Part shown: piece after piece, positions 41,101 through 61,395 of the stretch
Numbering within the stretch: the stretch's first letter is position 1
How the letters are laid out: each line of letters begins with the position of its first letter
NCBI RefSeq assembly: GCF_963921235.1
Contig: NC_086108.1
Coordinates: 48,858,001 to 48,922,000 of the forward strand
Origin: Mobula hypostoma
Lineage: Eukaryota
Direction: 5' to 3'
DNA length: 64,000 nucleotides
The notes under the pieces: generated by a model
Told to the model about the DNA's origin: nothing
The model's database searches: none
Seen by the model: the letters and a program-made list of their open reading frames with translations, nothing else
Program-made: the position numbers and the translations under genes

Positions 41101-43559
41101 CACCTTATCCAACTGAGGGCAGTGGTTCAAAGTGACGGTTAAATTTTAAATCAGCTTTACAATATTGACTTTTATACTAATCTGTTCTGTTGCATAAACC
41201 TATTCAGCCATCAGGGTGTGTTTGTTGATTCTTAAATGAGACAAGTTTAAGGGAAATTATTTAAAACAAAATACTGTTTACATAAAATACAATGCTTTCA
41301 ATTTATTGAGTATTGAAAGTATTGTATTCTTTCCAGATGTTTTCAAGGTTACTTTGAAATAATTTTTAAATTTTGCATTATTTTAGTGTTTTTTAATTAT
41401 GACACATTAATCTGTTTACACTGGTTTAAATGTTAAAGTATATTTGTTTTCCATTTGCTGACGAAAAGTAAACTTGTCAAAATTTGGCATTTGTGTGTTA
41501 TGAAGCAGATTGACCTGTATTTTAATTGCTTATTGAAGAGTTTATGAAGGGAGTAATTTTGGCAGTGTGACTAGACTTGTACTGCTAATTAGTTTTGGCA
41601 ACTTCAAAATTTACATCAACGCCATATGAAAAATTCTGTATACTACATTACAGCAGCAATGCCTTTCATCACAGTAGCCACCATGCATATTTAGTATAAT
41701 CATCATTTACTAATAATTTCTTATTTCAATTGTTTCCTATTCTTGAGGCCTCATTTTATCAGAGGAAGGAAATTGAGTTTTTAAACAAGAAGCTCCTAGG
41801 CTGCACCAGCAAAAAATCTAAACCTGTTACTGGAAAACAAATGTGAAGTGAAACTGGACTTCCGAGTAAACAAAGTGAATTTCCTGTGCAATCAGTAACC
41901 AAGAGAAGATTAATTTCCTGTTAATATTGTGAAAACTACACCTATCACAAATGTGTTTTCTATAGAGAATAAGTATTAAAGTTGAATATTTATTGTGGAC
42001 ATTCTGTATAGGGTGTCCTATCAGTACTAAATGGTGATATTTTGCCTTTGAAATTGTGGGTTCTTGGACACTATTAATAGTGGCAGTGGACAATGAAGCA
42101 GCATGCTGGAAAATTGTAGAAGTAACTATGGTTTTAATTTAAAAATTAAAGATTTTGTGACAATGGCAGATTAGACAAGCTACTTTAGGCTGCAGCATTG
42201 GGAATTACTTCAGTCTAAGCTTTACCTGGCTCATCACTGGATACAGGAAATACCCCTTGTCCTATTCAGACCTCCTCTCAACGTACTTTAAATTACATTG
42301 ACTATTGGTGATGCTTGTACTCATAACATTCTAAAATTTAATTACCTTTGCCATTTTCTGTGCTGTTCTTGCTCTTGCATGGTCCATATGTGACATTTTT
42401 ACTTCCTTAACATCACAAAGGGCAGATTATCCAGCAGTATTTCTTCTAAACCCACCTGTTCCTACGTGTTGACTACATCTTGCTCCCAGTAATAAATTTA
42501 ATTCAATTCTCTCAAATTCTGTTTTAACTGCTGTGATGTGATTTTCTCACATTAGTCTTTAAGATGTCTTCCTTTCTTAACGTCTTCCCTCTTCCCATAG
42601 TTGATAGTGCCACAACCTCATACCGTTTATTTTGGGTGCTACTCTCTTTTTTCCAGCCAGAATATCCTCCTATTATCATTTCCTTTCCTCAGCCCCACAC
42701 CAGATTATGCACTTAACAAATCACTTTCCATATTTTTGGTCACCTTCAACAGGTTTCAGGTACCAGGTTTATCTTTCTTTTTCCTCCCCTTTTCAGCATT
42801 TGAAAATAACTTTCTCCTTTCTGAGACTCTCTGCTCCATCCTTGCATTTCCATCTTAAACACCCCTCCCCCTTTGATACTTCCCCATGCAACCACAGATG
42901 GTGCAACACCTACCCTTTTTACTCTTTGACCCTATCCGGGGATGGATACAATCCCTCCCACTCCCTCAGCAATTCAGTTGCACATCCATTTGGCAGGCAT
43001 GATTAAGTTCCTCTATATAGGGGAAATGCAAATTGGGTGACAGTCTTCTTGAAGACCTCAATTAGGCAAAGGTGACCCTGAGCTTCCAGTGCTCTGACAT
43101 TTAAATCTGAGTCAGAATGAGAGAGAAAATCAATCTGCCTTTAACTGCTATATTGCCTCAGTATTTCTCATTGTCCAATCAAGGAAAATCACTTCATTTT
43201 CAGTTTGGGTACTTGGCAGCCCTTGGGATTTGGTATTGAGTTTAATGATTTCAGATAACCACTTCATTTTTTTTTTTTGGGATGTTGTTTCTTTTGGCTG
43301 GGCTGTTTGGAGCCAGGAGTCTCACAGCTAGATGAACACTAGAAAATAGGAGCAGGATTAGGCCTGCTGGCCTATCGAGTTTGTCCCTCCATAGAGTATG
43401 ACTAAGGTTGATCTTCTCCCCCCCCTTCCCCCATCCCCTCTCTCTCCCCCCCATTGTTCTAGATCCCATAGCCTTCAATTTCCCAATATTTGTTTTTAAA
43501 AAGAAAAAGATTTGTATCTATTTCTAGGTACAGTACTGTGCAAAAGTCTTGGTCAGATA

Positions 43560-44989
43560 CAGCTGCAAGAACAAGTTTGTGAATCCTTTGCAATTATCTA
43601 GTTTTCTGCATTAATTACTCATTAAATGTGGTCTGATCACAATAATGAACAAACATAATCTGCTTAAAACTAATAACACACAAACCATTTTCTTCCTGTC
43701 AATACTGAGTACACCATTTAAGCAATCACAGTCTCGGCTCAAAAAAAGAGTCAAGTTCTGGGGTAATGCCTTCTTTTAAAAAAGCCTGTCAGGTATTCCA
43801 ATTAATGGGGTGAGGTTGGAGGTATGGGTTGTACAGGTGCCCCACCCTATAAAGGAAACACACAAAGTCAGGTTACTGACAGAACCGGCTCTTCTCAAGA
43901 AAGATATGTTTACGTGCATCATGCCTCAACCAAACAGCTTCCAAAGTACCTGAGAAGAAGTAGAATTGTAGAGATGCATGGAGCTGGAAAAGGCTACAAA
44001 GCATTTCTAAAGACCTGGGTGTTCATCAGTCCACAGTAAGAGAAATTGTCCACAAGTGGATGAAACTCAGTACTGTTGCCTCTCTCCCACTGAAGAACAC
44101 TGAACAAGACTGGTATTCATGGAAGGACACCATGGAGGAAACCACTGCTCTCCAGAAAAAAACCCACATTGCCGCATGTCTCAAGTTTGCAAAAGACCAC
44201 CTGGATGTACTACAATGCTTCTAGGACAATGTTATGTGGACAGAAGAGACAAAGGTTGAACTTTTTGGACACTGCACACCAGTACCAAAACCTGATCACA
44301 ACTGTGAAGCCTAGTGGAAGGAGCACCTTAGTTTAGGGTTGTTTTGCTGCCTCTGGTCCTGAACAGCTTGCAATCATTGAGGGAACAATGAATGCAAAAT
44401 TGTATCAAGACATTTTACAGGAGAATGTCAGCATAGTGGTCCATCATCTGAAGCTTAACAGATGTTGGATAATTCAACAAGACAATGATCTGAAACACAA
44501 TAATAAATCAGCAAAACAGAATGGTTTAAAAAGAAAAAATTGTGTTTTGGAATGGCGAAGTCAGAGTCCAGAAATTAACCCAATTGAGATGCTGTATCAT
44601 GGCCTGAAGAGGGCTGTTCATGCAAGGTATCCCAGAAATACTGATGAACTGGAACAGTTTTGTATGGAGGAATGGTCTAAAATTCCTCCTTGCTGTTGTG
44701 CAAGTCTGATCAGCAGCTGCAGGAAACGTTTGGTGGAAGTATTGCAGCTAAAGGAGGTTCCACTAGTTAAATACAAGAGCTCAATTGTTTTTTCCAGCCT
44801 AGACTGTGAATGATTAAACAATATGATCAATAAAGACATGAAAAGTACAGTTGTTTGTGTGCTATTAGTTTAGACAGATTGGTGTTTATCTATTATTGTG
44901 ACTAAGATGAAGATCAGACCACATTTTATGAGAAAATAATACAGAAAACCAGATAATGCAAAAGGTTCACAAACTTTTTCTTGCAATTG
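43560..44989 (+). mobile_element. Tc1-like transposon with long TIRs and a dead transposase
   Basis: TA flanks; termini CAGCTGCAAGAA / TTCTTGCAATTG. QQDNDLKH and WRSQSPEINPIE motifs; frameshifted from the ATG at 43921. Confidence 0.92.
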
Positions 44990-45449
44990 TATATAGAGCT
45001 AAGGTGCCCAAGATTTTTGCAGAGTACTGCAGCAATCTTATATATTCCACTGCACTGCTGCCACAAAAAAAATAATGTTATCTTGGCTGAGTGATGATAA
45101 ACCTGGACAGAGAGTGGGAAGCACAAGAGAAACATTCTTTAATGATCAATAACCTAATTGTTGGGAATCAAATAAACTTGCCTGGTGTCTCAGGGCTGGG
45201 TGTGTCTGTACCCGCACTACACCCCTCCACCCCCCCCCGCCCCGTGCTCCTTCTCTGCTATCTCTCCCGTGGTGCTCCACCCTTCCCATTCTTAAAATTA
45301 TGTCCTCTTGTTCAATATTAACAAAAATGTCGACATTTTTCCTCACACTTTTGTGTGCTTCAATGAGATCACATCATTCTTCCAACCCCGAATATGCAGG
45401 CCTTACCTGTTTAGCCTCTCATTTCAGGAATTAGCGAATTGAACCACAA

Positions 45450-45656: not shown

Positions 45657-46150
45657 ATTAACGAAGTGAATCCCATTTGAACCGTGTCCAACATAACTTA
45701 TCCTTCCCTGGGTAAGGGGACCAAAAGTGCACTGTACTCCAGTTGTGGCTTCACCATCACTTTATACAATTGTAAAATAAGTACTATTTCTTAATTCCAA
45801 TATATTTACAATAAAAACCCAAATGCCATTTGACCTCATATCTACCAGCTACTTGTATCAATCTGTGAACTTCTAAGTGATTTGAACACAAGAACATCTC
45901 AACCTCTCTGGGAATCACTGATTTGGAATCTTGTTCCACCAAGAATAATCTGCCTTTTCATTTCTGTAACAGAAGTCACTTTCCCATGTTAAACTCCATT
46001 TGCTAAATTTTCACCCACTCACTCTTTACATCTTTTACAGGGTCACAATATCCTTGTTGTAATTTGCACTTCCATGTAGTTTTGTGTCATTGACAAATCT
46101 GTGTACCTTGTTTTCTGTCTTCTTGATAATAAATATAAATAATAATTAAT

Positions 46151-47789
46151 TGGTGACCCTGTGGTCTCTATCTCAGAGGCTGATGTTAGGCTGTCTTTAA
46201 GGAGGGTAAATCTTCGCAAGGCAGAAGGTCCTGATGGAGTACCTGGTAAGGCTCAAAAACTTGTGCCAACCAACTGGCAGGAGTATTCAAGGACGTTTTC
46301 AACCTCTCACTGCTACAGGCGGAAGTTCCCACTTGCTTCAAAAAGGCAACAATTATACCAGTGCCTAAGAAGAATAATGTGAGCTGTCTGAATGACTATT
46401 GCCCGGTAGCACTCGCATCTACAGTGATGAAATGCTTTGAGAGATTAATCATGACTCAACTGAACTCCTGCCTCATCAAGGACCTAACTGTACCCATTGC
46501 AATTTGCCTATCGCCACAATAGGTCAACGGCAGATACAATCTCAATGGCTCTTCACACGGCTTTAGACCACCTGGACAACACAAACATCGATGTCAGGAT
46601 GCTGTTCATCAACTATAGCTCAGCATTTAACACCATCATTCCCACAATCTAGATTGAGAAGTTGCAGAACCTGGGCTTCTGTACCTCCCTCTGCAATTGG
46701 ATCCTCAACTTCATAACCAGAAGACCACAATCTGTGCGGATTGGTGATAATATCTCCTCCTTGCTGACGATCAATGCTGGTGCACGCCAAAGGTGTGTGT
46801 TTAGCCCACTGCTCTACTCTCTATATACCTATGACTGTGTGGCTAGGCATAGCTCAAATACCATCTATAAATTTGCTAATGATACAACCATTGTTGGTAG
46901 TATCTCAGATGGAGACAAGAGGATATGTAGGAACAAGATATGCCAACTAGTGGAATGGTGTCGCAGCAACAACCTTGCACTCAACATCAGTAAGATGAAA
47001 GAGCTGATTGTGGACCTCAGGAGGGTAAGATGAAAGAACACATACCAATCCTCAGAGGAATCAGAAGTGGAGAGAGTGTGCAGTTTCAAGTTCCTGGGTT
47101 TCAAGATCTCTGAGGACCTAATCTGGTCGCAACATATCAATGCAGTTATAAAGAAGGCAAAGCAGCGTCTACACTTAATTAGGCGTTTGAACAGATTTGG
47201 TATATCAACAAATACACTCAAAAATTCTATAAGTATACCGTGGAGAGCATTTTGACAGGCTGCATCACCGTCTGGTATTGGGAGGGTTTTGGGGGGCGGG
47301 GGTGGCGAGGCTACTGCACAAGACCAAAAGAGGCCGCAGAGGTTTGTAAATTTATTCAGCTCCCATCTTGCATACTAGCCTACTAAGTGCCCAGGACATC
47401 TTCAAGGAGCAGTGTCTCAGAAAGGCAGCGTCCATTATTAAGGACCTCCAGCACCCAGGGCATGCCCCCTTCTCATTTTTACCATCATGTAAGAGGTACA
47501 GAAGCCTGAAGGCACACACTCAGCGATTCAGGAACAGCTTCTTCCCCTCTGCCATCCGATTTCTAAATGGACATTGAACGCATGAACACTACCTCATTTT
47601 TTAAATGCACTATTTCTACTTCTTGCAAGATTTTCAATCTATTCAATATACGTATACTGTAATTATTTATTAAATATTATTGTTTTTTTCTTTTTTTCTT
47701 TCATATTATGTATTGGATTGAACTGCTGCTGCTAAATTAACAAATTTCATGACACACGCTGGTGATAATAAACCTGATTCTGAATCTGA
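46151..47789 (+). mobile_element. Rex1/Babar-like LINE, 5'-truncated
   Basis: [42 protein letters not shown] + CTGATT-type tail. Confidence 0.85.
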
Positions 47790-48532: not shown

Positions 48533-50564
48533 TATACAGAGCATTGCCAAATGTCTTGGAAGTCCAAATATATCACACCGACAGGATTTCCTTTATCTAA
48601 TCTATTGGTTACATTGTCAAATGCGATTAGTTGATTTTTTTAAAATCTGCATTCCTAAGTGCCTTGCTAATCTTCTTTGATAGTTGAATACAACATTTCA
48701 CCAACACTAAGTATAAAAACTAATTGTAACCCTTCTGGAATTCAGTGAATTTTTCAAATCATTAACCAATAATATTCAGAGCACCTCTAAAGCTGCTCCC
48801 TTTCAAACCCTTGGCTGCTGATTTGTTTGCTTTTAGTTCTAAATGTTTTCTTCTTATCAGTTTTAATTGGGATTCTCACAAATTCTGTGTGCTATTTTAA
48901 ATAAACCCATCTGTTATCATCAGGATGTTTGCTTCACTGTCTTTCACAGTGCAATCCAATGAACAAAATCGACTTACAGTTGCTGTGTATTTAATGACAG
49001 CAATATTTAAGTAATATTGTAAATATATTTTTGAGTAAGCAATCCTTATTTGTTTACATAATTCATTATGGGTTCTATGTAAAAATGCTCAATTGCATAT
49101 GTCATGATGCTACCATGTGATATGCACTTCACTTAAAGTAAACACTTTTCCTTTCAATTCATTTAATCTGGAGATACAAAACGTGTTAGTGGTGACAAAG
49201 AAATTTGAAACAAACCTGAGACAACTACCTACCCATTGAACTGCAGCAAGGTGTACAAGTTTAAAAAAAAGTACTGTGGGAACAGTGGAGTTAATAAAAA
49301 GCGCAGCTAGTTTTCTTCACAAAAGCAAAGGCGATTGAGTTAATAAAAGGCAGAAAATGGAAGAATTCATGGGTTCATAAACATTGATAACTAAGTTGAT
49401 AATCCTAAAAAAGCAGAAATGGCTGTCTACAACAGAAAGATTGGCACATTTGATTACATAGCAGATAACTAAAATATCTACTGAGCTTACTGAGCAAAAT
49501 TTTAGCACAAACGGAATAACCAATGAGGAACCAACTGAAATGAGCTTTGCTGATTTCATGAAAGTATTGCAGAAACTTTTAGAAACAAAGCCATTGCTGA
49601 TTGAAGAATGCTTTAGGTTCCATACGCAGAATCAAAAGGCAGCCTATTTCCACGTATGTGGCTGTATTGAAGAGATTGTCTGAGCATTGTCAGTTCCATA
49701 ATGGGCTTAACAATGCATTAAGAGATTGCTTAGTTTGTGAAATCTCACAAGAAAGCATTCAAAAATGGCTCCTAACAGAAGCCCACATTTCAAAGAGCAG
49801 TTGAAATAGCTGTATCAGTGGAAACAGTAGACAGATGCACAATTAATTTGCAATCAGGAATGAAAGTGAGCTTGAACAAAATTGCAATGTCTAAACAGAA
49901 ACCGACCTGGCCAAACAAATTGTGTTACCATTGTGACCAGGGATCACATATATCAGACTAATGCAAGTTTAAAATCAAAACTTGCAGAAAATACAACAAA
50001 GTAGGACACGTACAAAGAGCATGTTGGGTGGAAAAAATAAATGGACTGCACAGGGAAGAGAAAAAGATAGAAAGTCAAACTGCTTTTTCAAAAAAGAAGC
50101 CCTGATCTGCATACTGTTGATGAAAAATCTGATGACAGTGACAAAAGACATGGAAGCCTTGGATTTGCAATGTGAAAGCCAGCAATAGACAAGCTTACAC
50201 CAGAAGTGAATGGCAAATTAATTGAAATGGAATTAAGACATAAGCTTAGCTGTTTCAGTCATTCTACAAAACAAATTTGAATGGCTTTTCAAAGATAGTA
50301 AACTGAAGCCTGCAGATATCCAATGAAGAACTTATATTGGAGAAAAGGTAATTCCTGTGGAAGTGGCATTTGTGGCAGTGAAATCTATTAACCAACAAGC
50401 CACATTGGTTAAAATAGGACTAGCATTGTGGGGGCATGACTGGCTGAGACAACAACAGCTTGATTGGACATCCATCCATGACTTGCATGTTACATTCCCT
50501 GAAAAAGAGTCAACCAAAAGCAAATTAAGAAAGGTACTGGATGATGCCACAACTGTCTCCATGC

Positions 50565-51768
50565 TGTACACCATGAACCATTGCCCAACAGAGGGTTGGT
50601 GCCAACCTCTGTGCCTCTGGTTGAAAAGCATATTGGAAGGACCATGCTGCTCAGGGGAGTCGTGAAAGTGACAAAAGCAGTGGTCTGATTATAACAGTTT
50701 TTGTAGGCAACAAATCTGAGAAAGCTTCTGATATGTTAATCCGGCAGTTACTTGTGAAAGCAACACACATCAAAGTTGCTGGTGAACGCAGCAGGCCAGG
50801 CAGCATCTCTAGGAAGAGGTACAGTCAACATTTCGGGCTGAGACCTTTCGTCAGGACTAACTGAAGAAAGAGCTAGTAAGAGATTTAAAAGTGGGAGGGG
50901 GAGGGGGAGATCCAAAATGATAGGAGAAGACAGGAGGGGGAGGGGTGGAGCCAAGAGCTGGACAGGTGATTGGCAAAAGGAGTATGAGAGGATCATGGGA
51001 CAGGAGGCCCAGGGAGAAAGAAAAGGGGGGGGGAACCCAGAGGATGGGTAAGGTGTATAGTGAGAGGGACAGAGGGAGAAAAAGGAGAGAGAGAGAGAGA
51101 AAGAATGTGTGTATATAAATAACGGATGGGATACGAGGGGGAGGTGGGGCATTAGCGGAAGTTAGAGAAGTCAATGTTCATGCCATCAAGTTGGAGGCTA
51201 CCCAGACGGAATATAAGGTGTTGTTCCTCCAACCTGAGTGTGGCTTCATCTACACTCAGGTTGGAGGAGGAACACCTTATATTCCGTCTGGGTAGCCTCC
51301 AACCTGATGGCATGAACATTGACTTCTCAAACTTCCGCTAATGCCCCACCTCCCCCTCGTACCCCATCCATTATTAATGTGTCTTGGTTTTATGCTGGAA
51401 GAGAGTTCAAGGGATTTTGGGAAAGTTGCAAGCATTTAGCTTCTGTGAGTTTAAAGAACCAGAATCTACTCTGAGTGCATTAAGGTTATTGCATGAACTT
51501 CAAGTGGGAGACAAAAAGCTGCTTGTAAAAGTAAATACAAGGACCAAAGCCCAGCTGGATGAATGGAAGGTCAAAAAGAAAGGAGTCAATGGAGATACAA
51601 AAACAGAGGATTCATGAGATAATATGGTGGCTGAGGAAACCAAGAGGAGACATCAGATTACAAAGGGAGCAATAGAAGGATGAATAAGAGAATACTCCAG
51701 TGAACTAAATGCACCTTCCCAGGATCAAGATGTACAAATTAGAGGAAGAAAAAGGAAGGAGAAAAAAA
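50565..51768 (+). pseudogene. RBM25: Processed RBM25 fragment (RRM region), interrupted by a PLE
   Basis: TVFVGNKSEKASDMLIRQLLVK|..LVLCWKRVQG..GKLQAF.FCEFKEPESTL.ALRLLHELQVGDKKLLVKV..TKAQLDEWK..EETKRR..KGAIE..IREYSSELNAPSQ matches human RBM25. No introns; contains stops. The 5' limit is approximate. Confidence 0.92.
50759..51375 (-). mobile_element. Truncated Penelope-like element with fold-back
   Basis: 3' end at 50759; inversion at 51241/51252 with a 10-nt spacer and ~124-bp arms. Confidence 0.9.
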
Positions 51769-52384
51769 GTATCCAGAGCTGTCAGAACCATTTCCTACAA
51801 TCTCAGAGTCAACTTCTACAACCAGTACAGAGGAGGCCCCAGAACTGAGGTTGTTTTCACAGCCACAAGTCTCACCTGCCAAGCAGAGTGACCTCCCTTG
51901 TCAGGAAAGATGTTATCCCAGAAGAGAAAGAAATCCTCCACAGCAATTATATCTTTAGGCTGAATGGGACAGTTTAAAATTGGCTGTGCTGTGGATGTCT
52001 GTATATATTAATTGTATTGTATATACTGTGTATATAGTTGGGATGCAATCTCTGTTGAGTTGGAGTTTATAGCTAAGCAGGGAGGAATGTTGTGTATTTA
52101 ATATTTCAGTAATATTGTAAATATATCGTTTAAATAAGCATTTTTATTTGTTTAAATAATTTGTTCTGGATTATAGGTAAAAATACATGAATTATATACA
52201 TCATGCTGCTATCACGTGATACGTACACGCCTTACTTGAAGTAAACACATTAGACAATGTCTATTAGTAAACAAATTAGACTCACATTTTGGACTTATGT
52301 CATTTCGGTTCAATTATTTTAATGTTTTTGAGATACAAAACATAACAGCCATGTAAAGCATAGTTGCCATTTCTTTGTATAATA

Positions 52385-54585
52385 TGATCGACAGACGGCA
52401 CAATAGCCACTGTTCTACATAACGTCCTTACACATCTGGAGTAGAAGGATGCTTAGTTGAGAATGCTGTTCTTGGACTACAGTTCAGCGTTCAACACCAT
52501 AATTCCCTCCAGGCTTGACAAGAAGCTCAGAGACCTCTGCATTGACCCTGCCTTGTGTAGCTGGATCCTGGACTTCCTGTCAGATCACCAGCAGGTGGTA
52601 GGAATGGGCTCCCTCACCTCCACCCCTCTGACTCTCAACACAGGGGCCCCTCAGGGCCGTGTACTAAGCCCCCTCCTTTACTCCGTGTATACCCATGACT
52701 GTGTCACCACCTACAGCTCTAATCTGCTAATTAAATTTGCCGACAACACTACATTGATTGGCCTAATCTCAAACAATAATGAGGTGGCCTACAGGAAAGG
52801 AGTCATCTCTCTGTCACAGTGGTGTCAAGAAAACAACCTCTCCCTCAATATCACAAAAAAACAAAGGAGTTGGTTGTGGATTACAGGAGGAATGGAGGTG
52901 GGATAAACCCCATTGACGTCAATGGATCTGGGGTTGAGAGGGTGAACAGCTTCAGGTTCCTCATCATGCACATCACCGAGGACCTCACGTGGTCTGTACA
53001 CACCAGCTGTGTGGTGAAAAAGGCACAACAGTGCCTCTTTCACATCAGACGGTTGAGGATGTTTGGTATGGGCCCCCAAATCCTAAAAACTTTCTATAGG
53101 GGCACATTTGAGAACATCCTGGCCAGCTGCATTACTGCCTGCTATGAGAACTGTACTTCCCTCAATCACAGGACTCTGCAGAGAGTGGTGCGGACAGCCC
53201 ATCACATCTGTAGTTGTGGACTTCCCCTGATTCAGGACATTTATGAGGACAGGTTTGAAAAAGGGTTCATAGGATCACTGGGGACCCAAGTCACCCCAAC
53301 CACAATCTATTCCAGCTGCTACCATCCGGGAAATGGTACCACAGCATAAAAGCCAGGACCAACAGGCTCCAAGACAGCTTCTTCCACCAGGCCCTCAGAC
53401 TGATTAACTTACACTGATTTGAGTGTATTTCTGTATTACATTGACTGTTATATTTATTATAAATTATTATAAATTACTATAATTTGCACATTGCGCTTTC
53501 AGATGGAGATGTAGCGTAAAGATGTCATGGTCCGGTCCGTGAAGTCCGCATTCCAGTTCATGGTCCGGTCCATCGACCCTTGCTCCAGGTTTTCCTGTCT
53601 ACCCTGTTTCTATTCCTGTTGAGCAGTAATTGAGGCGGCTGATTCTCGTTGGGACTGGCTGCATAAATATCTCCAGAGGCCAGGGCGTAGCTGCTGGATT
53701 GTTCTTGTCCTTACTCCTCGTATCCCTTCTCCTGTCTTCCGTTTCCTTGCCTGAAGCCTTGCCTTGTCTTGCCGGCAACTCTCGTCTTGCCCTTAAGTTC
53801 TTGCCTCGCCTTGCATTGACTGAAGCCTTGCCTTGTCTTGCCGGTAACTCTCACCTCGCCTGAAGTTCTTGTCTTGCCTTGCATTGACTGAAGCCTTGCC
53901 TTGTATTGCTGGTAACTCTCACCTCGTCTCGCCTGAAGTCTTGTCCTGGAGCCACCCTGAACCTAGTTCCCTTCCTGTCCCTTGCCCTCGTCAGGTAAGC
54001 CAGGCTAGATTGCCATTACCCTGCGGTGGGTCCTGTCCCTTGCCTCCGTCGGGTAAGTCAGGCCAGATTGCCATTACCCTGCGGTGGGTTCTGTCCCTTC
54101 CTTCCGTTGGGTGGAGATCCACGTCCTGCCCAGGAGTACTGCGCCCTTCCTAGGAGGAGCCTCAAGACCCCAAGCCTCGAGCCTCGCCCCAAGCCAAGCT
54201 TCAAGACCCCAAGCCTCAAGCCTCGCCTCCAGTCTCTGGTCTCCAGCCTCGCCTCAAGTCTGAAGACTCCAGCCCCGTCCTGCCTCCCAGCCAAGTCACG
54301 TCCTTGCCTAGTTCTGGGGTCCGAGCCAGAGTCAAGACTCAGGTTCTGGGTCCTTGTCCAGTCTCTGGCTCGGAGTCCAAGCCCTAGCTCCTAGCTCTCT
54401 TGTCCAGTCCTGTTCTGGGTTCCTGGTTTTCGGGTCCATGTCCTAGCCCTCACCCTATATCCTAGTCCTGTCCCTAGTACTTCAGTGTCTGTGTTTTGCA
54501 CTTGGGTCCGTTCCCAGACACCTCCTCATGACAAAAGATTTTTATTGCTCATGTATATGAAGGATGTAAGAAGTAAAGTCAATAA
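52385..54585 (+). mobile_element. Rex1/Babar-like LINE 3' part, interrupted by a solo LTR
   Basis: [33 protein letters not shown]; the 3' UTR resumes after 54538. Confidence 0.85.
53523..54533. mobile_element. Solo LTR (1011 bp) with internal tandem duplications
   Basis: TGTCATG...CATGACA termini; TSD AAAGA at 53518-53522 and 54534-54538. Confidence 0.9.
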
Positions 54586-54928
54586 ATCCTTAATAGAATA
54601 ATGGAATCAACGAGAGACCGCACCATCTGGGTGTTCAACCAGTGTGCAAATATAAAAAAAGAAAATAATCATAAAAAAATAAGCAATAAATATCGAGAGT
54701 CTATTCTGGCCTACTTTTAGTTTTTTCTTGTACATTTCTATTTTTTACAATCCAGATCCATACAAAATACTTATTTATTGGTCTTATATTTGTCGAAAAA
54801 AAAACGTCGCCCAAAATCATCTGCAACAGAGTACATTTACTGTGGGCGTAGCAGTGGTTGTCACAACCGAGCAACTGTGAGCTGTGCACCTGCAGCACTC
54901 GACCGGGGCGGGGGTGCCACGCTTTGCA

Positions 54929-56063
54929 GCCGCCGGACCCGCCCTGTCCACCGATACTGCCGCCGGACCCCCCCGCCCACCGATACTGCCGCCGGACCCC
55001 CCCGCCCACCGATACTGCCGCCGGACCCCCCCGCTCACAGATACTGCCGCCGGACACGCCCCGCCCACCGATACTGCCGCCGGACACGCCCCGCCCACCG
55101 ATACTGCCGCCGGACACGCACCGCCCACCGATACTGCCGCCGGACACGCCCCGCCCACCGATACTGCCGCCGGACACGCCCCGCCCACCGATACTGCCGC
55201 CGGACACCACCCGCCCACCGATACTGCCGCCGGACACCACCCGCCCACCGATACTGCCGCCGGACACGCCCCGCCCACCGATACTGCCGCCGGACACGCC
55301 CCGCCCACCGATACTGCCGCCGGACACGCCCCGCCCACCGATACTGCCGCCGGACACGCCCCGCCCACCGATACTGCCGCCGGACACCACCCGCCCACCG
55401 ATACTGCCGCCGGACACGCCCCGCCCACCGATACTGCCGCCGGACACCACCCGCCCACCGATACTGCCGCCGGACACCACCCGCCCACCGATACTGCCGC
55501 CGGACACCACTCGCCCACTGATACTGCCGCCGGACCCCCCCGCCCACCGATACTGCCGCCGGACACGCACCGCCCACCGATACTGCCGCCGGACACCACC
55601 CGCCCACCGATACTGCCGCCGGACACCACCCGCCCACTGATACTGCCGCCGGACACGCCCCGCCCACCGTTACTGCCGCCGGACCCCCCCGCCCACCGAT
55701 ACTGCCGCCGGACACCACCCGCCCACTGATGCTGCCGCCGGACCCCCCCGCCCACCGATACTGCCGCCGGACACGCCCCGCCCACCGTTACTGCCGCCGG
55801 ACCCCCCCGCCCACTGATACTGCCGCCGGACCCCCCCGCCCACCGATACTGCCGCCGGACACCACCCGCCCACTGATGCTGCCGCCGGACACGCCCCGCC
55901 CACCGATACTGCCGCCGGACCCCCCCGCCCACTGATGCTGCCGCCGGACCCCCCCGCCCACCGATACTGCCGCCGGACACGCCCCGCCCACCGATACTGC
56001 CGCCGGACACGCCCCGCCTACCGATGATGCCGCTGGACACGCCCCGCCCACTGATGCTGCCGG
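54929..56063. repeat. GC-rich minisatellite, ~38 units of 29-30 bp (CCGCCCACCGATACTGCCGCCGGAC + ACGCC/ACCAC/CCCC/ACGCA)
   Basis: Units counted by eye; head-to-tail with no unique spacers. Confidence 0.97.
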
Positions 56064-56640
56064 TTGCTCCTGCGCCTGACGTCACAATGCCCCGCTGCGG
56101 GATCAACCAACGAGGCCACAGAGGGAGGGAGGTGAGGAAGGATAAACAAGATCATCAGATCAAATGATGGACTAAAGCTTTATTGATCAAACTGTAATGT
56201 TCTCGATTATAATAAAAAACAATAATTGCACTAAGGCATCTGTCGAAAAGAGTGTTTTTCATATTCAGACGGACGTTTGTAAGAGTACCCACTCACTGTA
56301 GAAGTTGTCTGCCTGTATGTCTAGCCTGACGCCATTTTGTGCGTGTGTCGGTTCGGGTCTGCTGCTCTGTTCCTGACCGCTGCTGCTGTGTGAGGGTAAG
56401 GGTGAGTGAAAGACCGGGGTCACCTTGGATGGGGATGGCTGGGTTGGTGTCTCGACGACCACGCACGGTTGTTTTGTTAGCGTTTTGTGGCGGCGCAGTT
56501 TGCCACTGGAGGACTGCAGTTGGCGCGCCGCGGTTGCGCACATTGTAACCGGCCTGTAGTCGTCTTTGTGCGGCTGCCGGCAGGATCGATTGACAGTGGC
56601 GATTTGTGATGCGCTTAAAATTTTCTCCGTGTTGGTCAGT
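56064..56640 (+). promoter_or_regulatory. DHX9: Putative DHX9 CpG-rich promoter and non-coding exon 1
   Basis: CpG-dense unique sequence. CRE palindrome TGACGTCA 56077-56084; YY1-type GACGCCATTTTG 56328-56339; donor-like GTAAGG at 56396 and GTGAGT at 56402. Exon assignment is inferred. Confidence 0.7.
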
Positions 56641-57777
56641 ACAGTATTTTGGGAGCTTCGCAGTTTAGAAGTTTTTTTTCAGACTTGCAATGGAAATCGT
56701 TTCTGTTGTCCCTTCTAGAAGATAACTAAGCAATCGTATCTGTTCTGTTTGAAAATGAACAGCGATTTACATCAGTGTGCTGAGGTCGAATGACACGCAG
56801 TCATCTTTTCTGCAACCCTGCATATTGAGTATATATTCGACTACAATTATAATTGGTTATTTGACAGGTGAGCTTGAGTTTTACACGCAAACACGAGGAA
56901 ATCTGCAGATGCTGGAATTTCAAGCAACACACATAAAAGTTGCTGGTGAACGCAGCAGGCCAGGCAACATCTCTAGGAAGAGGTACAGTCGGCGTTTCGG
57001 GCTGAGAGCCTTCGTCAGGACTAACTGAAAGAAGGGCTAGTAAGAGATTTGGGAGGGGGAGATCCAAAATGATAGGGGAACACAGGAGGGGGAGGGATGG
57101 AGCTAAGAGCTGGACAATTGATTAACAAAAGGGATATGAGAGGATCATGGGACAGGAGGCCTAGGGAGAGAGAAAAGGGGGGGGGGAACCCAGAGGATGG
57201 GACAGAGGGAGAAAAAGAATGTGTGTATATAAATAAATAACGGATGGGGTACGAGGGGGAGGTGGGGCATTAGCGGAAGTTTGAGAAGTCAATGTTCATG
57301 CCATCAAGTTGGAGGCTACCCAGACGGAATATAAGGTGTTGTTCCTCCAACCTGAGTGTGGCTTCATCTTTACAGTAGAGGAGGCCGTGGATAGACATGT
57401 CAGAATGGGAATGGGATGTGGAATTAAAATGTGTGGCCACTGGAAGATCCTGCTTTCTCTGGCAGACAGAGCGTAGGTGTTCAACGAAACAATCTCCCAG
57501 TCTCTGTCGTGTCTCGCCAAAATATAGAAGGCCACATCGGGAGCACTGGACGCAGTATATCACCCCAGCGGACTCACAGGTGAAGTGTCGCCTCACCTAG
57601 AAGGACTGTCTGGGGCTCTGAATGGTGGTAAGGGAGGAAGTGTAAGGGCATGTGTAGCACTTGTTCCGCTTGCAAGGATAAGTGCCAGGAGGGAGATCAA
57701 TGGGGAGGGATGGAGGGACGAATCAAACTGTACAGCTCCTCCCTTGGAGGGTCAGACACCCTGAGCCAATAGGCTGG

Positions 57778-58599
57778 GAACAAGTGCTACACATGCCCTT
57801 ACACTTCCTCCCTTACCGCCATTCAGGGCCCCAAACAGTCCTTCCAGGTGGGGCAACACTTCACCTGTGAGTTGACTGGGGTGATATACTGTGTCCGGTG
57901 CTCCCGATGTGGCCTTTTATATATTGGCAAGACCCGACGCAGACTGGGAGACTGCTTTGCTGAACATCTACGCTCTGTCTGCCAGAGAAAGCAGGATCTC
58001 CCAGTGGCCACACATTTTAATTCCACATCCCATTCCCATTCTGACATGTCTATCCACGGCCTCCTCTACTGCAAAGATGAAGCCACACTCAGGTTGGAGG
58101 AACAACACCTTATATTCCGTCTGGGTAGCCTCCAACCTGATGGCATGAACATCGACTTCTCTAACTTCCGCTAAGGCCCCACCTCCCCCTCGTACCCTGT
58201 TACTTATTTTTATGCACACATTCTTTCTCTCACTCTCCTTTTTCTCCCTCTGTCCCTCTGAATATACCTCTTGCCCGTCCTCTGGGTCCCCCCCCCCACC
58301 TTGTCTTTCTTCCTGGACCTCCTGACCCATCATCCTCTCGTATCCCCTTTTGCCTATCACCTGTCCAGCTCTTGGCTCTATCCCTCCCCCTCCTGTCTTC
58401 TCCTATCATTTTGGATCTCCCCCTCCCCCTCCAACTTTCAAATCCCTTGCTCACTCTTCCTTCAGTTAGTCCTGACGAAGGGTCTCGGCCTGAAACGTTG
58501 ACTGCACCTCTTCCTACAGATGCTGCCTGGCCTGCTTCGTTCACCAGCAACTTTGATGTGTGTTGCTTGAATTTCCAGCATCCGCAGAATTCCTGTTGT
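57778..58599 (+). mobile_element. Penelope-like element B (3' 0.8 kb) nested in the LINE tail
   Basis: TSD TAGGCTGG at 57770-57777 and 58600-58607; GIY-YIG ORF 57848-58174; shares subfamily variants with 25482-27817. Confidence 0.92.
58468..58503 (+). ncRNA. Minimal hammerhead motif, GUU variant
   Basis: As 27686-27721 but GAAACGUU. Confidence 0.7.
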
Positions 58600-60700
58600 T
58601 AGGCTGGTACTGAACTTATTTCCTGGCATAATTTACATAATATTTAATAATTTATGGTTTTATATTTCTATATCTATACTCTGTTATTGTTTGGTGCAAC
58701 TGTAACGAAACCCAATTTCCCTCAGGATCAATAAAGTATGACTATGAATGGACAAGATAGTTGCGTAGGGAGCGATCCCTGTGGAAAGCGGGGGGGGAGG
58801 GGGAAGGGAAAGATGTGCTTAGTGGTGGGATCCCGTTGGAGGTGGCGGAAGTTACGGAGAATTATATTTTGGACCCCGGAGGCTGGTGGGGTGGTAGGTG
58901 AGGACAAGGGGAACCCTATTCCTAGTGGGGCAGCGAGAGGATGGAGTGAGAGCAGATGTGCGTGAAATGGGGGAGGTGCGTTTGCGAGCAGAGTTGATGC
59001 TGGAGGAAGGGAAGCCCCTTTCTTTAAAAAAGGAGGACATATCCCTCGTCCTGGAATGAAAAGCCTCATCCTGAGAGCAGATGCGGCGGAGACGGAGGAA
59101 TTGCGAGAAGGGGATGGCATTTTTGCAAGAGACAAGGTGAGAAGAGAAATAGTCCAGAAAGCTGTGAGAGTCAGTAGGCTTATAGTAGACATCAGTGGAT
59201 AAGCTGTCTCCAGAGATAGAGACAAAAAGATCTAGAAAGGGGAGGGAGGTGTCGGAAATGGACCAGGTAAACTTGAGGGCAGGGTGAAAGTTGGAGGCAA
59301 AGTTAATGAAGTCAACGAGCTCAGCATGCGTGCAGGAAGCAGCGCCAATGCAGTCGTTGATGTAGCGAAGGTTCCTGCACGCATGCTGAGCTCGTTGACT
59401 TCATTGACTTTGCCTCCAACTTTCACCCTGCCCTCAAGTTTACCTGTTCCATTACCGACACCTTCCTCACCTTTCTAGATCTTTTTGTCTCTATCTCTGG
59501 AGACAGCTAATCTACTGATGTCCACTGTAAGCCTACTGACTCTCACAGCTATCTGGACTATTCCTCTTCTCACTCTGTCTCTTGCAAAAATGCCATCCCC
59601 TTCTCGCAATTCCTCCGTCTCCGCCGCATCTGCTCTCAGGATGAGGCTTTTCATTCCAGGACGAGGGAGATGTCCTTTTTTAAAGAAAGGGGCTTCCCTT
59701 CCTCCAGCATCAACTCTGTTCTCAAACGCACCTCCCCCATTTCACGCACATCTGCTCTCACTCCATCCTCCCGCCACCCCACTAGGAATACGGTCCTCAC
59801 CTACCACCCCACCAGCCTCCAGGGTCCAAAATATAATTCTCCGTAACTTCCGCCACCTCCAACGGGATCCCACCACTAAGCACATCTTTCCCTACCCCCC
59901 CCGCCCCCCGCTTTCCGCAGGGATCGCTCCCTACGCAACTATCTTGTCCATTCGTCTCCCCCCCGCCCATCCCTCCCCACTGATCTCTGTCCTGGCATTT
60001 ATCCTTGCAAGCGGAACAAGTGCTACACATGCCCTTACATTTCGTCCCTTACCACCATTCAGGGCCCCAGACAGTCCTTCCAGGTGAGGCGACACTTCAC
60101 CTGTGAGTTAGCTGGGTGATATACTGTGTCCGGTGCTCCCGATGTGGCCTTCTATATATTGGCGAGACCCGATGCAGACTGGGAGATCGTTTTGCTGAAC
60201 ACCTACGCTCTGTCCGCCAGAGAAAGCAGGATCTCCCAGTGGCCACACATTTTAATTTCACATCCCATTCCCTTTCTGATATGTCTATCCACGGCCTCCT
60301 CTGCTGTAAAGATGAAGCCACACTCAGGTTGGAGGAACAACACCTTATATTCCATCTGGGTAGCCTCCAACCTGATGGCATGAACATTGACTTCTCAAAC
60401 TTCTGCTAATGCCCCACCTCCCCCTCGTACCCCATCCGTTATTTATTTATATGTACACATTCTTTCTCTCTCTCTCCTTTTTCTCCCTCTGTCCCTCTCA
60501 CTATACCCCTTGCCCATCCTCTGGTTCCCCCCCCCTTTCTTTCTCCCCGGACCTCCTGTCCCATGATCCTCTCATATCCCCTTTGCCAATCACCTGTCCA
60601 GCTCTTGGCTCCATCCCTCCCCCTCCTGTCTTCTCCTATCATTTTGGATCTCCCCCTCCCACTCCCACTTTCAAATCTCTTACTAGCTCTTCCTTCAGTT

Positions 60701-60736
60701 AGTCCTGACGAAGGGTCTCGGCCTGAAACGTCGACT
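60701..60736 (+). ncRNA. Minimal hammerhead motif, intact core
   Basis: Identical to 27686-27721. Confidence 0.8.
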
Positions 60737-61395
60737 GTACCTCTTCCTAGAGATGCTGCCTGGCCTGCTGCGTTCACCAGCAACTTTGATGTGTGTTGCT
60801 TGAATTTCCAGCATCTGCAGATTTCCTTGTGTTTGAGAACTTTTGGATAGTGGGAGGAGGAACAGTGGCACTGGGAACACAGTCAGGGTAGAAACTTAGA
60901 ACAATGGGATAAAACAAGTGGTACTGGATGAAGGGAGATAGCTGAGGATAGAGAATAATGCAAATCACATCTAAATAGGCAGCGATAAATGAAATCCGAA
61001 ATACCGGAAAGAAAGCAAACTGAATACTTAAATTGAGATAAGGCTTGAATACTGCTATTTTGGTGACAAGTCCAGCAGGATGTGGTGTTATTCCTCGAGT
61101 CTGTTTTGCATCATTGCAGCAGTGTATGATTCCAAAGATTGAAATGATTCAGGGAGGGACAATTAATGTAGCAGGTAACTGATAGCTCAGAGTCACTTTT
61201 GTTGATTATGAGGTGTGCCGCAAAACAGTAATCCTGTCTGCTTGGTTTCCTCACCGAGTGGAGACCACATTATGGTCACTGAATATATAATAATTACTTC
61301 TTCCATGTTAGTGTTAAAATTATTCACTTTCTTGTTGTTCATTTCTTTAAGGAGCAAACACTAACATTGATGGTGGCTAATAATCAAGAGGAAGC

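Follow-up and report, generated by a model that had tools for sequence, protein, structure and literature searches.

A dead Gypsy copy with spliced RBM25 in place of its pol core, from an abundant non-autonomous family

How does a piece of RBM25, a core splicing gene, come to lie between the two LTRs of a retrotransposon, and did it multiply with them? This question is raised by a locus in 64,000 nucleotides of repeat-rich vertebrate DNA from Mobula hypostoma, the whole of which is referred to here as the window. The element copy at 48981-52347, the only one of its kind in this 64-kb window, is an old, dead member of an abundant non-autonomous Gypsy family carrying spliced RBM25. It is highly probable that the family is chimeric and non-autonomous, and that it arose through one template-switch capture of RBM25, followed by multiplication as an LTR element. 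The capture route and its mechanism are known (Tan et al. 2016, PMC5131818); what is new is the family itself, whose unusual aspect, for a vertebrate, is the scale of its copy number.

The element consists of the following features.

48981..49184, + strand: 5' LTR; right end degraded and approximate; 158 of 194 aligned bases equal to the 3' LTR
49190..49199, + strand: primer-binding-site-like motif starting TGG (sequence; X1 contigs leaving the LTR end begin with a similar motif)
49419..50221, + strand: decayed gag with two CCHC-type zinc knuckles at about 49923-50042 (tblastn with P0287 and P0288)
50222..50557, + strand: remains of the aspartic protease region plus the pre-RT linker (58 homologues; tblastn; Pfam protease domains on homologues)
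50546..50557, + strand: putative 5' switch zone of four codons (ATTV), compatible with RBM25 as well as with the Gypsy linker in a single frame
50546..50757, + strand: RBM25 5' piece (tblastn with P0242, P0122 and P0241)
50758..51375, no strand assigned: high-copy repeat containing an inverted repeat, inserted later; about 8 window copies, flanks contiguous
51376..51768, + strand: RBM25 3' piece, comprising the remainder of the RRM plus the following exon and interrupted by stops at 51615 and 51681
51770..51958, + strand: C-terminal tail of the Gypsy integrase, in a different frame from RBM25 (tblastn with P0287 and P0294)
52075..52087, + strand: polypurine tract, immediately before the 3' LTR (sequence)
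52088..52347, + strand: 3' LTR, TG...CA (LTR alignment; loose contig ends pile up at both edges)

The order LTR, gag, protease, RBM25, integrase tail and purine tract, as well as the strand and content of these parts, agree with the original prediction (tblastn, LTR alignment). The two LTRs, compared over 194 aligned bases, have a K2P distance of 0.22 and are further separated by indels of 53 nt and 9 nt. The cis-signals are intact, including the motif at 49190..49199, which we take to be the primer binding site. The gag, its zinc knuckles and the protease match fish and frog Gypsy polyproteins (tblastn, E 2e-35 for P0287 and 6e-20 for P0285); the start of gag at 49419 is taken from translation, the knuckles correspond to Pfam zf-CCHC on the homologue P0288, and the region contains many stops and frameshifts. 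Among the 58 homologues of the protease region, those with names are annotated as Pol or K02A2.6-like and come from fish, frog and coral; their domains follow the Gypsy order of protease, RT, RNase H and integrase (Pfam on P0285 and P0294). From the two zinc knuckles we assume that the element, from which RT is absent, belongs to the Mag clade.

Gypsy homologues match the window up to 50557 and then solely at 51773-51955 (tblastn), where the tail weakly matches their last 50-55 residues (E 1.6e-4 and 0.009); a direct word search using this tail gave 0 of 18 candidates. In P0294 (1012 aa), residues about 200-957, which contain RT, RNase H and integrase (Pfam), have no match in the window. Because about 760 residues of this relative have no counterpart there, pol has been replaced rather than interrupted, as had been claimed for the RT-integrase core. 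Pfam on 9 window frames returned nothing beyond an RRM below threshold and a spurious UBX, a PDB search matched only other RRMs, Rfam had no match inside the element and no tRNA was detected in the 64-kb window. The 5-bp flanks of the whole element agree at 2 of 5 bases, which is as compatible with a decayed target-site duplication (TSD) as with none; given the lack of a clear TSD and the two indels between the LTRs, two copies may have recombined to give this one.

With regard to the RBM25 cargo, its presence was correctly predicted, whereas its extent had to be revised: it starts at about 50546, some 19 nt to the left of the 50565 first given, and amounts to about 605 nt (212 + 393) instead of ~590 bp. 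It lies on the same strand as the element, in sense and intron-free, and there is no poly(A) or TSD around it (sequence, tblastn, contig depth), as had been noted. The 5' piece comprises the end of the upstream exon, an extra coding segment and the VLVPT exon with the start of the RRM, and exhibits frameshifts near 50596 and 50637. The 3' piece ends ~5 nt before an exon end, the exon ends being taken from intron read-through proteins. The best match is an RBM25-like protein of Heptranchias perlo (83% identity, E 3e-59); other matches show 60-72% identity and are mostly from bony fish (120 listed of 225), and the named ones among those 120 are RBM25, RBM25-like or RRM/PWI/uncharacterised proteins. 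The closer match to a shark points to a host that is most probably a cartilaginous fish. Alignment to mammalian matches places the cargo at about residues 49-241 of human RBM25. According to the available part of a published description, the RRM comprises residues 87-164, with the RE/RD and PWI regions elsewhere (PMC3553564). The cargo includes the RRM in full but neither the RE/RD nor the PWI region.

At least three splice sites are crossed by the cargo, as judged from read-through and isoform proteins that come mostly from bony vertebrates, the shark introns being deduced. Among the 282 RBM25 search proteins, the AFGF...NG exon occurs alone in 57, with V following in 52 of these; 13 proteins end at GKLQ, two begin at KCG, two begin at VLVP, and six exhibit a 5-residue insert after GKLQ. 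Two shark isoforms show differences immediately before VLVP and continue with unrelated residues beyond KKEE. In the window, all of these putative splice sites are crossed without an intron, which bears out the proposed origin from a spliced mRNA; the parental gene appears to have introns in this region, with exon ends deduced from proteins.

The extra segment of 16-20 residues, which may be a cassette exon or an exon extension, is found in P0122, P0241 and P0242 and at 50555-50596 of the window. It is present in three of 284 proteins (two from Heptranchias, one other), and in one of the 149 that span the region. As the window at 50546-50596 matches residues 12-28 of P0242 at 16 of 17 positions (tblastn, frame 2), the captured RNA was an isoform with this extra coding segment before the VLVPT exon, and the fragment keeps an old RBM25 isoform. 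No protein combining Gypsy and RBM25 parts was found: the 58 Gypsy homologues reach RBM25 only by short run-ons of the protease alignment, and the RBM25 matches align to the RBM25 part only, except for a few stray extensions.

The two junctions suggest how the capture may have taken place. At the 5' side, RBM25 begins in frame with gag-protease, both partners being in frame 2 at 50546-50557 (tblastn). The last residue of the four-codon zone, V, is present in 16 of 19 parsed Gypsy homologues, while most of the distant homologues lack the other three shared residues; as the first residue, A, occurs in just three of the 19, the closest ones, this overlap is no more than suggestive. The A-run at the 3' side (51762-51768) does not represent a poly(A) tail, since another letter is found in 95% (at 51764) and 91% (at 51768) of the X1 contig depth. 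In run X8, 47 contigs enter the tail from another sequence, which shares a 10-nt purine-rich stretch with the majority form of the RBM25 end (agreement 0.49, possibly mixed); these contigs may represent the uncaptured element. Template switching as the route of capture is inferred: the overlap at the 5' side is visible at protein level only, and that at the 3' side depends on a consensus of mixed loose ends.

According to this model, a Gypsy LTR retrotransposon in a cartilaginous-fish ancestor would have packaged a spliced RBM25 mRNA along with its own RNA. While reverse transcribing the integrase tail, the enzyme would have switched to this mRNA, copied ~600 nt of it, and resumed on the element just after the protease, probably via short shared stretches. 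The product retained both LTRs, the primer site, the purine tract, gag and protease, and lost RT, RNase H and the integrase core. An intact relative would then have copied it in trans many times over, a multiplicity that is seen at the 3' junction. In this process, RBM25 was most likely carried along as a passenger.

The existence of other copies was examined for the 3' half of the element, using contigs of four runs (X1, X5, X8 and X15) aligned to 51345-52400 at 80% likeness. Words of this half occur in 20 runs from 10 studies, at 0.25-0.63 in DNA or untyped runs of organisms A-F, and none of the runs containing them is labelled RNA. The contigs that align to this ~1-kb stretch number 16,552 in X1, 19,626 in X5 and 13,789 in X8, which represent three organisms, and most are less than 95% alike; they are short, and none covers the whole stretch. 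The median depth of the RBM25 bins relative to the tail is 0.63 in X1, 0.97 in X5 and 0.62 in X8. In X1, the RBM25 depth is 766-3,449 times that of unique flank (median 1,708), a figure which by itself is not a copy number; overlapping contigs can inflate depth up to 15-fold. A calibration on random letters under 18 settings, using a star model without indels, gave a summed contig depth per copy of 0.45-15, so that the X1 median corresponds to 110-3,800 copies, or roughly 100 to a few thousand. The element has therefore probably multiplied to hundreds of copies or more.

That it was RBM25-derived DNA that spread, as the original prediction had suspected for the chimera, is supported at the 3' junction, which diverged contigs cross. 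Six of the 32 listed contigs extend over it with at least 31 letters on each side (one in X1, three in X5, two in X15 and none in X8, where two listed contigs reach 20 letters past it); since all six are only 80-86% alike, that is 14-20% diverged, they represent other copies. The two X15 contigs are no evidence of transcription, because this run is typed as RNA by guess only. At sites 2-6 nt away from the junction, the majority letter is present in 103-109 X1 contigs (at most 128 counted). The RBM25 depth stops where the match of the window stops and goes on into the tail, and contigs that continue unlike the stretch make up only 3-7% of the aligned DNA-run contigs. Among the 24 of 3,183 loose-end rows listed, in which the family masks the exon edges of the parental gene, ends with mixed flanks are observed before 52088 (181-210 contigs in each of three runs) and behind 52347 (114-119 contigs in X1 and X5), a pattern that solo LTRs or intact relatives would produce equally. 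Many copies with the same internal structure are thus present for the 3' half of the element (51345-52400).

A contig of X1 is identical to the 3' LTR and its flank at depth 8, which marks X1 as the species or sample of the window, so this run is not independent for the locus. X5 carries the same LTR-flank join with 9 differences, and the insertion is therefore older than the split of organisms A and B. In X8, the last 12 flank bases are uncovered, which makes this run uninformative on the point.

Several other origins were weighed against the template-switch capture. The locus might be a single dead retrocopy or a set of DNA-duplication copies, the depth being due to RBM25 pseudogenes and Gypsy tails that are unrelated but aligned side by side. 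The shortness of the contigs, none of which spans the whole stretch, and the inflation of depth by overlap would allow this. Nevertheless, we regard it as very unlikely: diverged contigs cross the 3' junction in three of the four runs, X1 contigs carry the majority letter at sites within a few nucleotides of it, the depth passes from the end of the RBM25 match into the tail, both LTR ends have mixed flanks, and even the worst-case calibration leaves ~100 copies. A LINE-made processed pseudogene of RBM25 that landed in a Gypsy copy, with a deletion then removing the 3' part of the pseudogene and most of pol before the LTR element spread, is unlikely, though less so. LINE RT fragments are located close by, 5' truncation is consistent with LINE copying, as is well established, and a deletion can likewise use microhomology and would erase the poly(A) and one TSD. 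This route requires two events, however, and does not predict that RBM25 and the element should overlap at the 5' junction, whose four codons suit both partners in frame, whereas two-sided truncation with replacement of pol is the reported pattern of template switching. The hallmarks of a LINE pseudogene, namely poly(A), TSD, an intact 3' end and contiguous flanks, are absent, and what was found differs from the single copy with poly(A) or TSD and contiguous Gypsy flanks that would characterize an ordinary retrocopy.

The 618-nt insert between the two RBM25 pieces bears on a further alternative, a DNA-level relic of the RBM25 gene in which the insert is a leftover intron. It is located 1 nt from a former RBM25 exon junction, as an intron would be; this reading is hardly conceivable all the same, as the insert lacks GT-AG ends and belongs to a repeat of which the window contains about 8 further copies or part-copies (84-97% identity, with a common 5' end), and as the other RBM25 exon junctions are joined without an intron. 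The insert was accordingly dropped as an intron candidate. RBM25 codons are contiguous across its flanks. Pfam on a related ORF of the insert and Rfam on the insert itself gave no match; it is presumably Penelope-like. Template-switch capture, with this repeat inserted later, remains the preferred reading.

The copy is dead, in agreement with the original prediction, as indicated by its stops, frameshifts, later repeat insertion and neutral-looking decay. In the RBM25 3' piece, 15 of 19 majority-difference sites are residue-changing, compared with 72% by chance; these 19 are among the 40 of 175 majority-difference sites listed for the stretch. Of 129 residues, 23 in this copy depart from both shark-type proteins, 14 of them at listed sites, and the majority letter restores the shark residue in 12 of these 14 codons. 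Only this copy carries the two stops at 51615 and 51681, and the differences listed for this piece include no common frameshift. As residue changes are near chance and majority letters shark-like, the family began close to RBM25 and this copy decayed unconstrained.

A function of the cargo is conceivable but doubtful. A Gag-protease-RRM polyprotein could have aided RNA packaging or processing and outcompeted the intact parent, or the hundreds of RBM25-like copies could now produce small RNAs that act on the host RBM25 or are tolerated because of it. The in-frame 5' join, the retention of exactly the RRM, the majority letters near shark RBM25 and the private stops speak for it; an in-frame join is expected by chance in one case out of three, and this copy has two frameshifts before the RRM. 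If true, this would be a vertebrate retrotransposon family succeeding through a stolen splicing-factor domain.

Other repeats surround the element. The repeat inserted in the RBM25 piece recurs in head-to-head copies at 56890-58600 and 60310-60801, with at least 8 part-copies in the window. Two decayed LINE RT fragments are located at 46146-47600 and 52360-53440, the second beginning ~15 nt downstream of the 3' LTR. Another family has left a 1-kb solo LTR (53523-54533, TG...CA) with a perfect 5-bp target-site duplication and internal repeats of 58-69 nt. It is followed at 54900-56130 by a GC-rich tandem array of ~40 copies of 29-30 nt units, with long open frames on both strands. The region 58746-59953 is a 1.2-kb near-perfect palindrome, possibly a foldback element, with arms 94-97% complementary and a 19-nt centre. 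A DNA transposon relic at 43557-44992 has terminal inverted repeats around a DDE_3-like frame (E 7e-5).

An LTR element with a piece of host mRNA can thus match an ordinary repeat family in abundance in a vertebrate, far above the known few-copy cases. Hundreds of natural copies make it possible to test whether a captured cargo is selected while its element is active, and how small-RNA silencing deals with a repeat matching a core splicing gene. RBM25-like copies can also confound RBM25 expression and annotation in these fishes. As retrocopy surveys, in the parts available, discard candidates with at least 40% repeat overlap, families of captured mRNA can be missed. Our literature search found no account of an RBM25-carrying Gypsy family, nor of such scale in any vertebrate. 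RBM25 paired with shark, ray, retrocopy or retrotransposon yielded no report among the matches listed, a coverage far from exhaustive, and "RBM" is absent from the available main text of four recent genome preprints. Host pieces within repeat consensus sequences have been surveyed (PMC3597677), and the available part of that survey does not mention the RRM. In cartilaginous fishes, the top retrocopy parents are given as MIPOL1, SUDS3, SDF2L1, SLU7 and ZNF276 in the part of the source available (10.64898/2026.06.26.734816); speculatively, their retrocopies could be other element-borne fragments.

Among known systems, the K02A2.6-like Gypsy elements of fish and frog (P0285, P0287 and P0294) are similar in their gag with two zinc knuckles, protease, pre-RT linker and RYP-type tail, but possess the RT, RNase H and integrase core that are absent in the RBM25 element. 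The following comparisons are based on the available parts of the respective papers. CrocERV29 (KIT-ligand) and CrocERV31 (nectin3) are likewise old vertebrate LTR elements that captured host mRNA and multiplied in several species, and in CrocERV31 nectin3 replaces a viral gene (PMC4299795). They are, however, retroviral, with 9 and 6 copies and whole ORFs under purifying selection (PMC4299795), whereas the present family is Gypsy and carries a fragment in place of the pol core. Pxyfem, the W-linked PxyMasc retrocopies of Plutella xylostella, resembles it as a partial cDNA next to LTR remnants, shows microsimilarity at a switch point, and differs in its tandem arrays, with 11 copies tied to one LTR fragment; silencing of the parent gene by such copies has been shown (PMC9674220).

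The LTR-mediated animal retrocopies of Tan et al. 2016 (PMC5131818), re-mobilised at few sites, are comparable in that a partial, spliced, sense mRNA replaces internal ORFs within one discontinuous LTR element, lacks poly(A), is truncated on both sides and can move again as a non-autonomous element. The same features are found here: an intron-free mRNA piece, discontinuous flanks, no poly(A) or TSD around the piece, and both LTRs. In contrast, re-amplification in that study, which covered no shark or ray, is limited to two cases in Drosophila, each at two or more sites (18 sites for all 9 retrocopies together), whereas the Gypsy-RBM25 family appears to comprise about 100 to a few thousand copies and to be common to at least three organisms.
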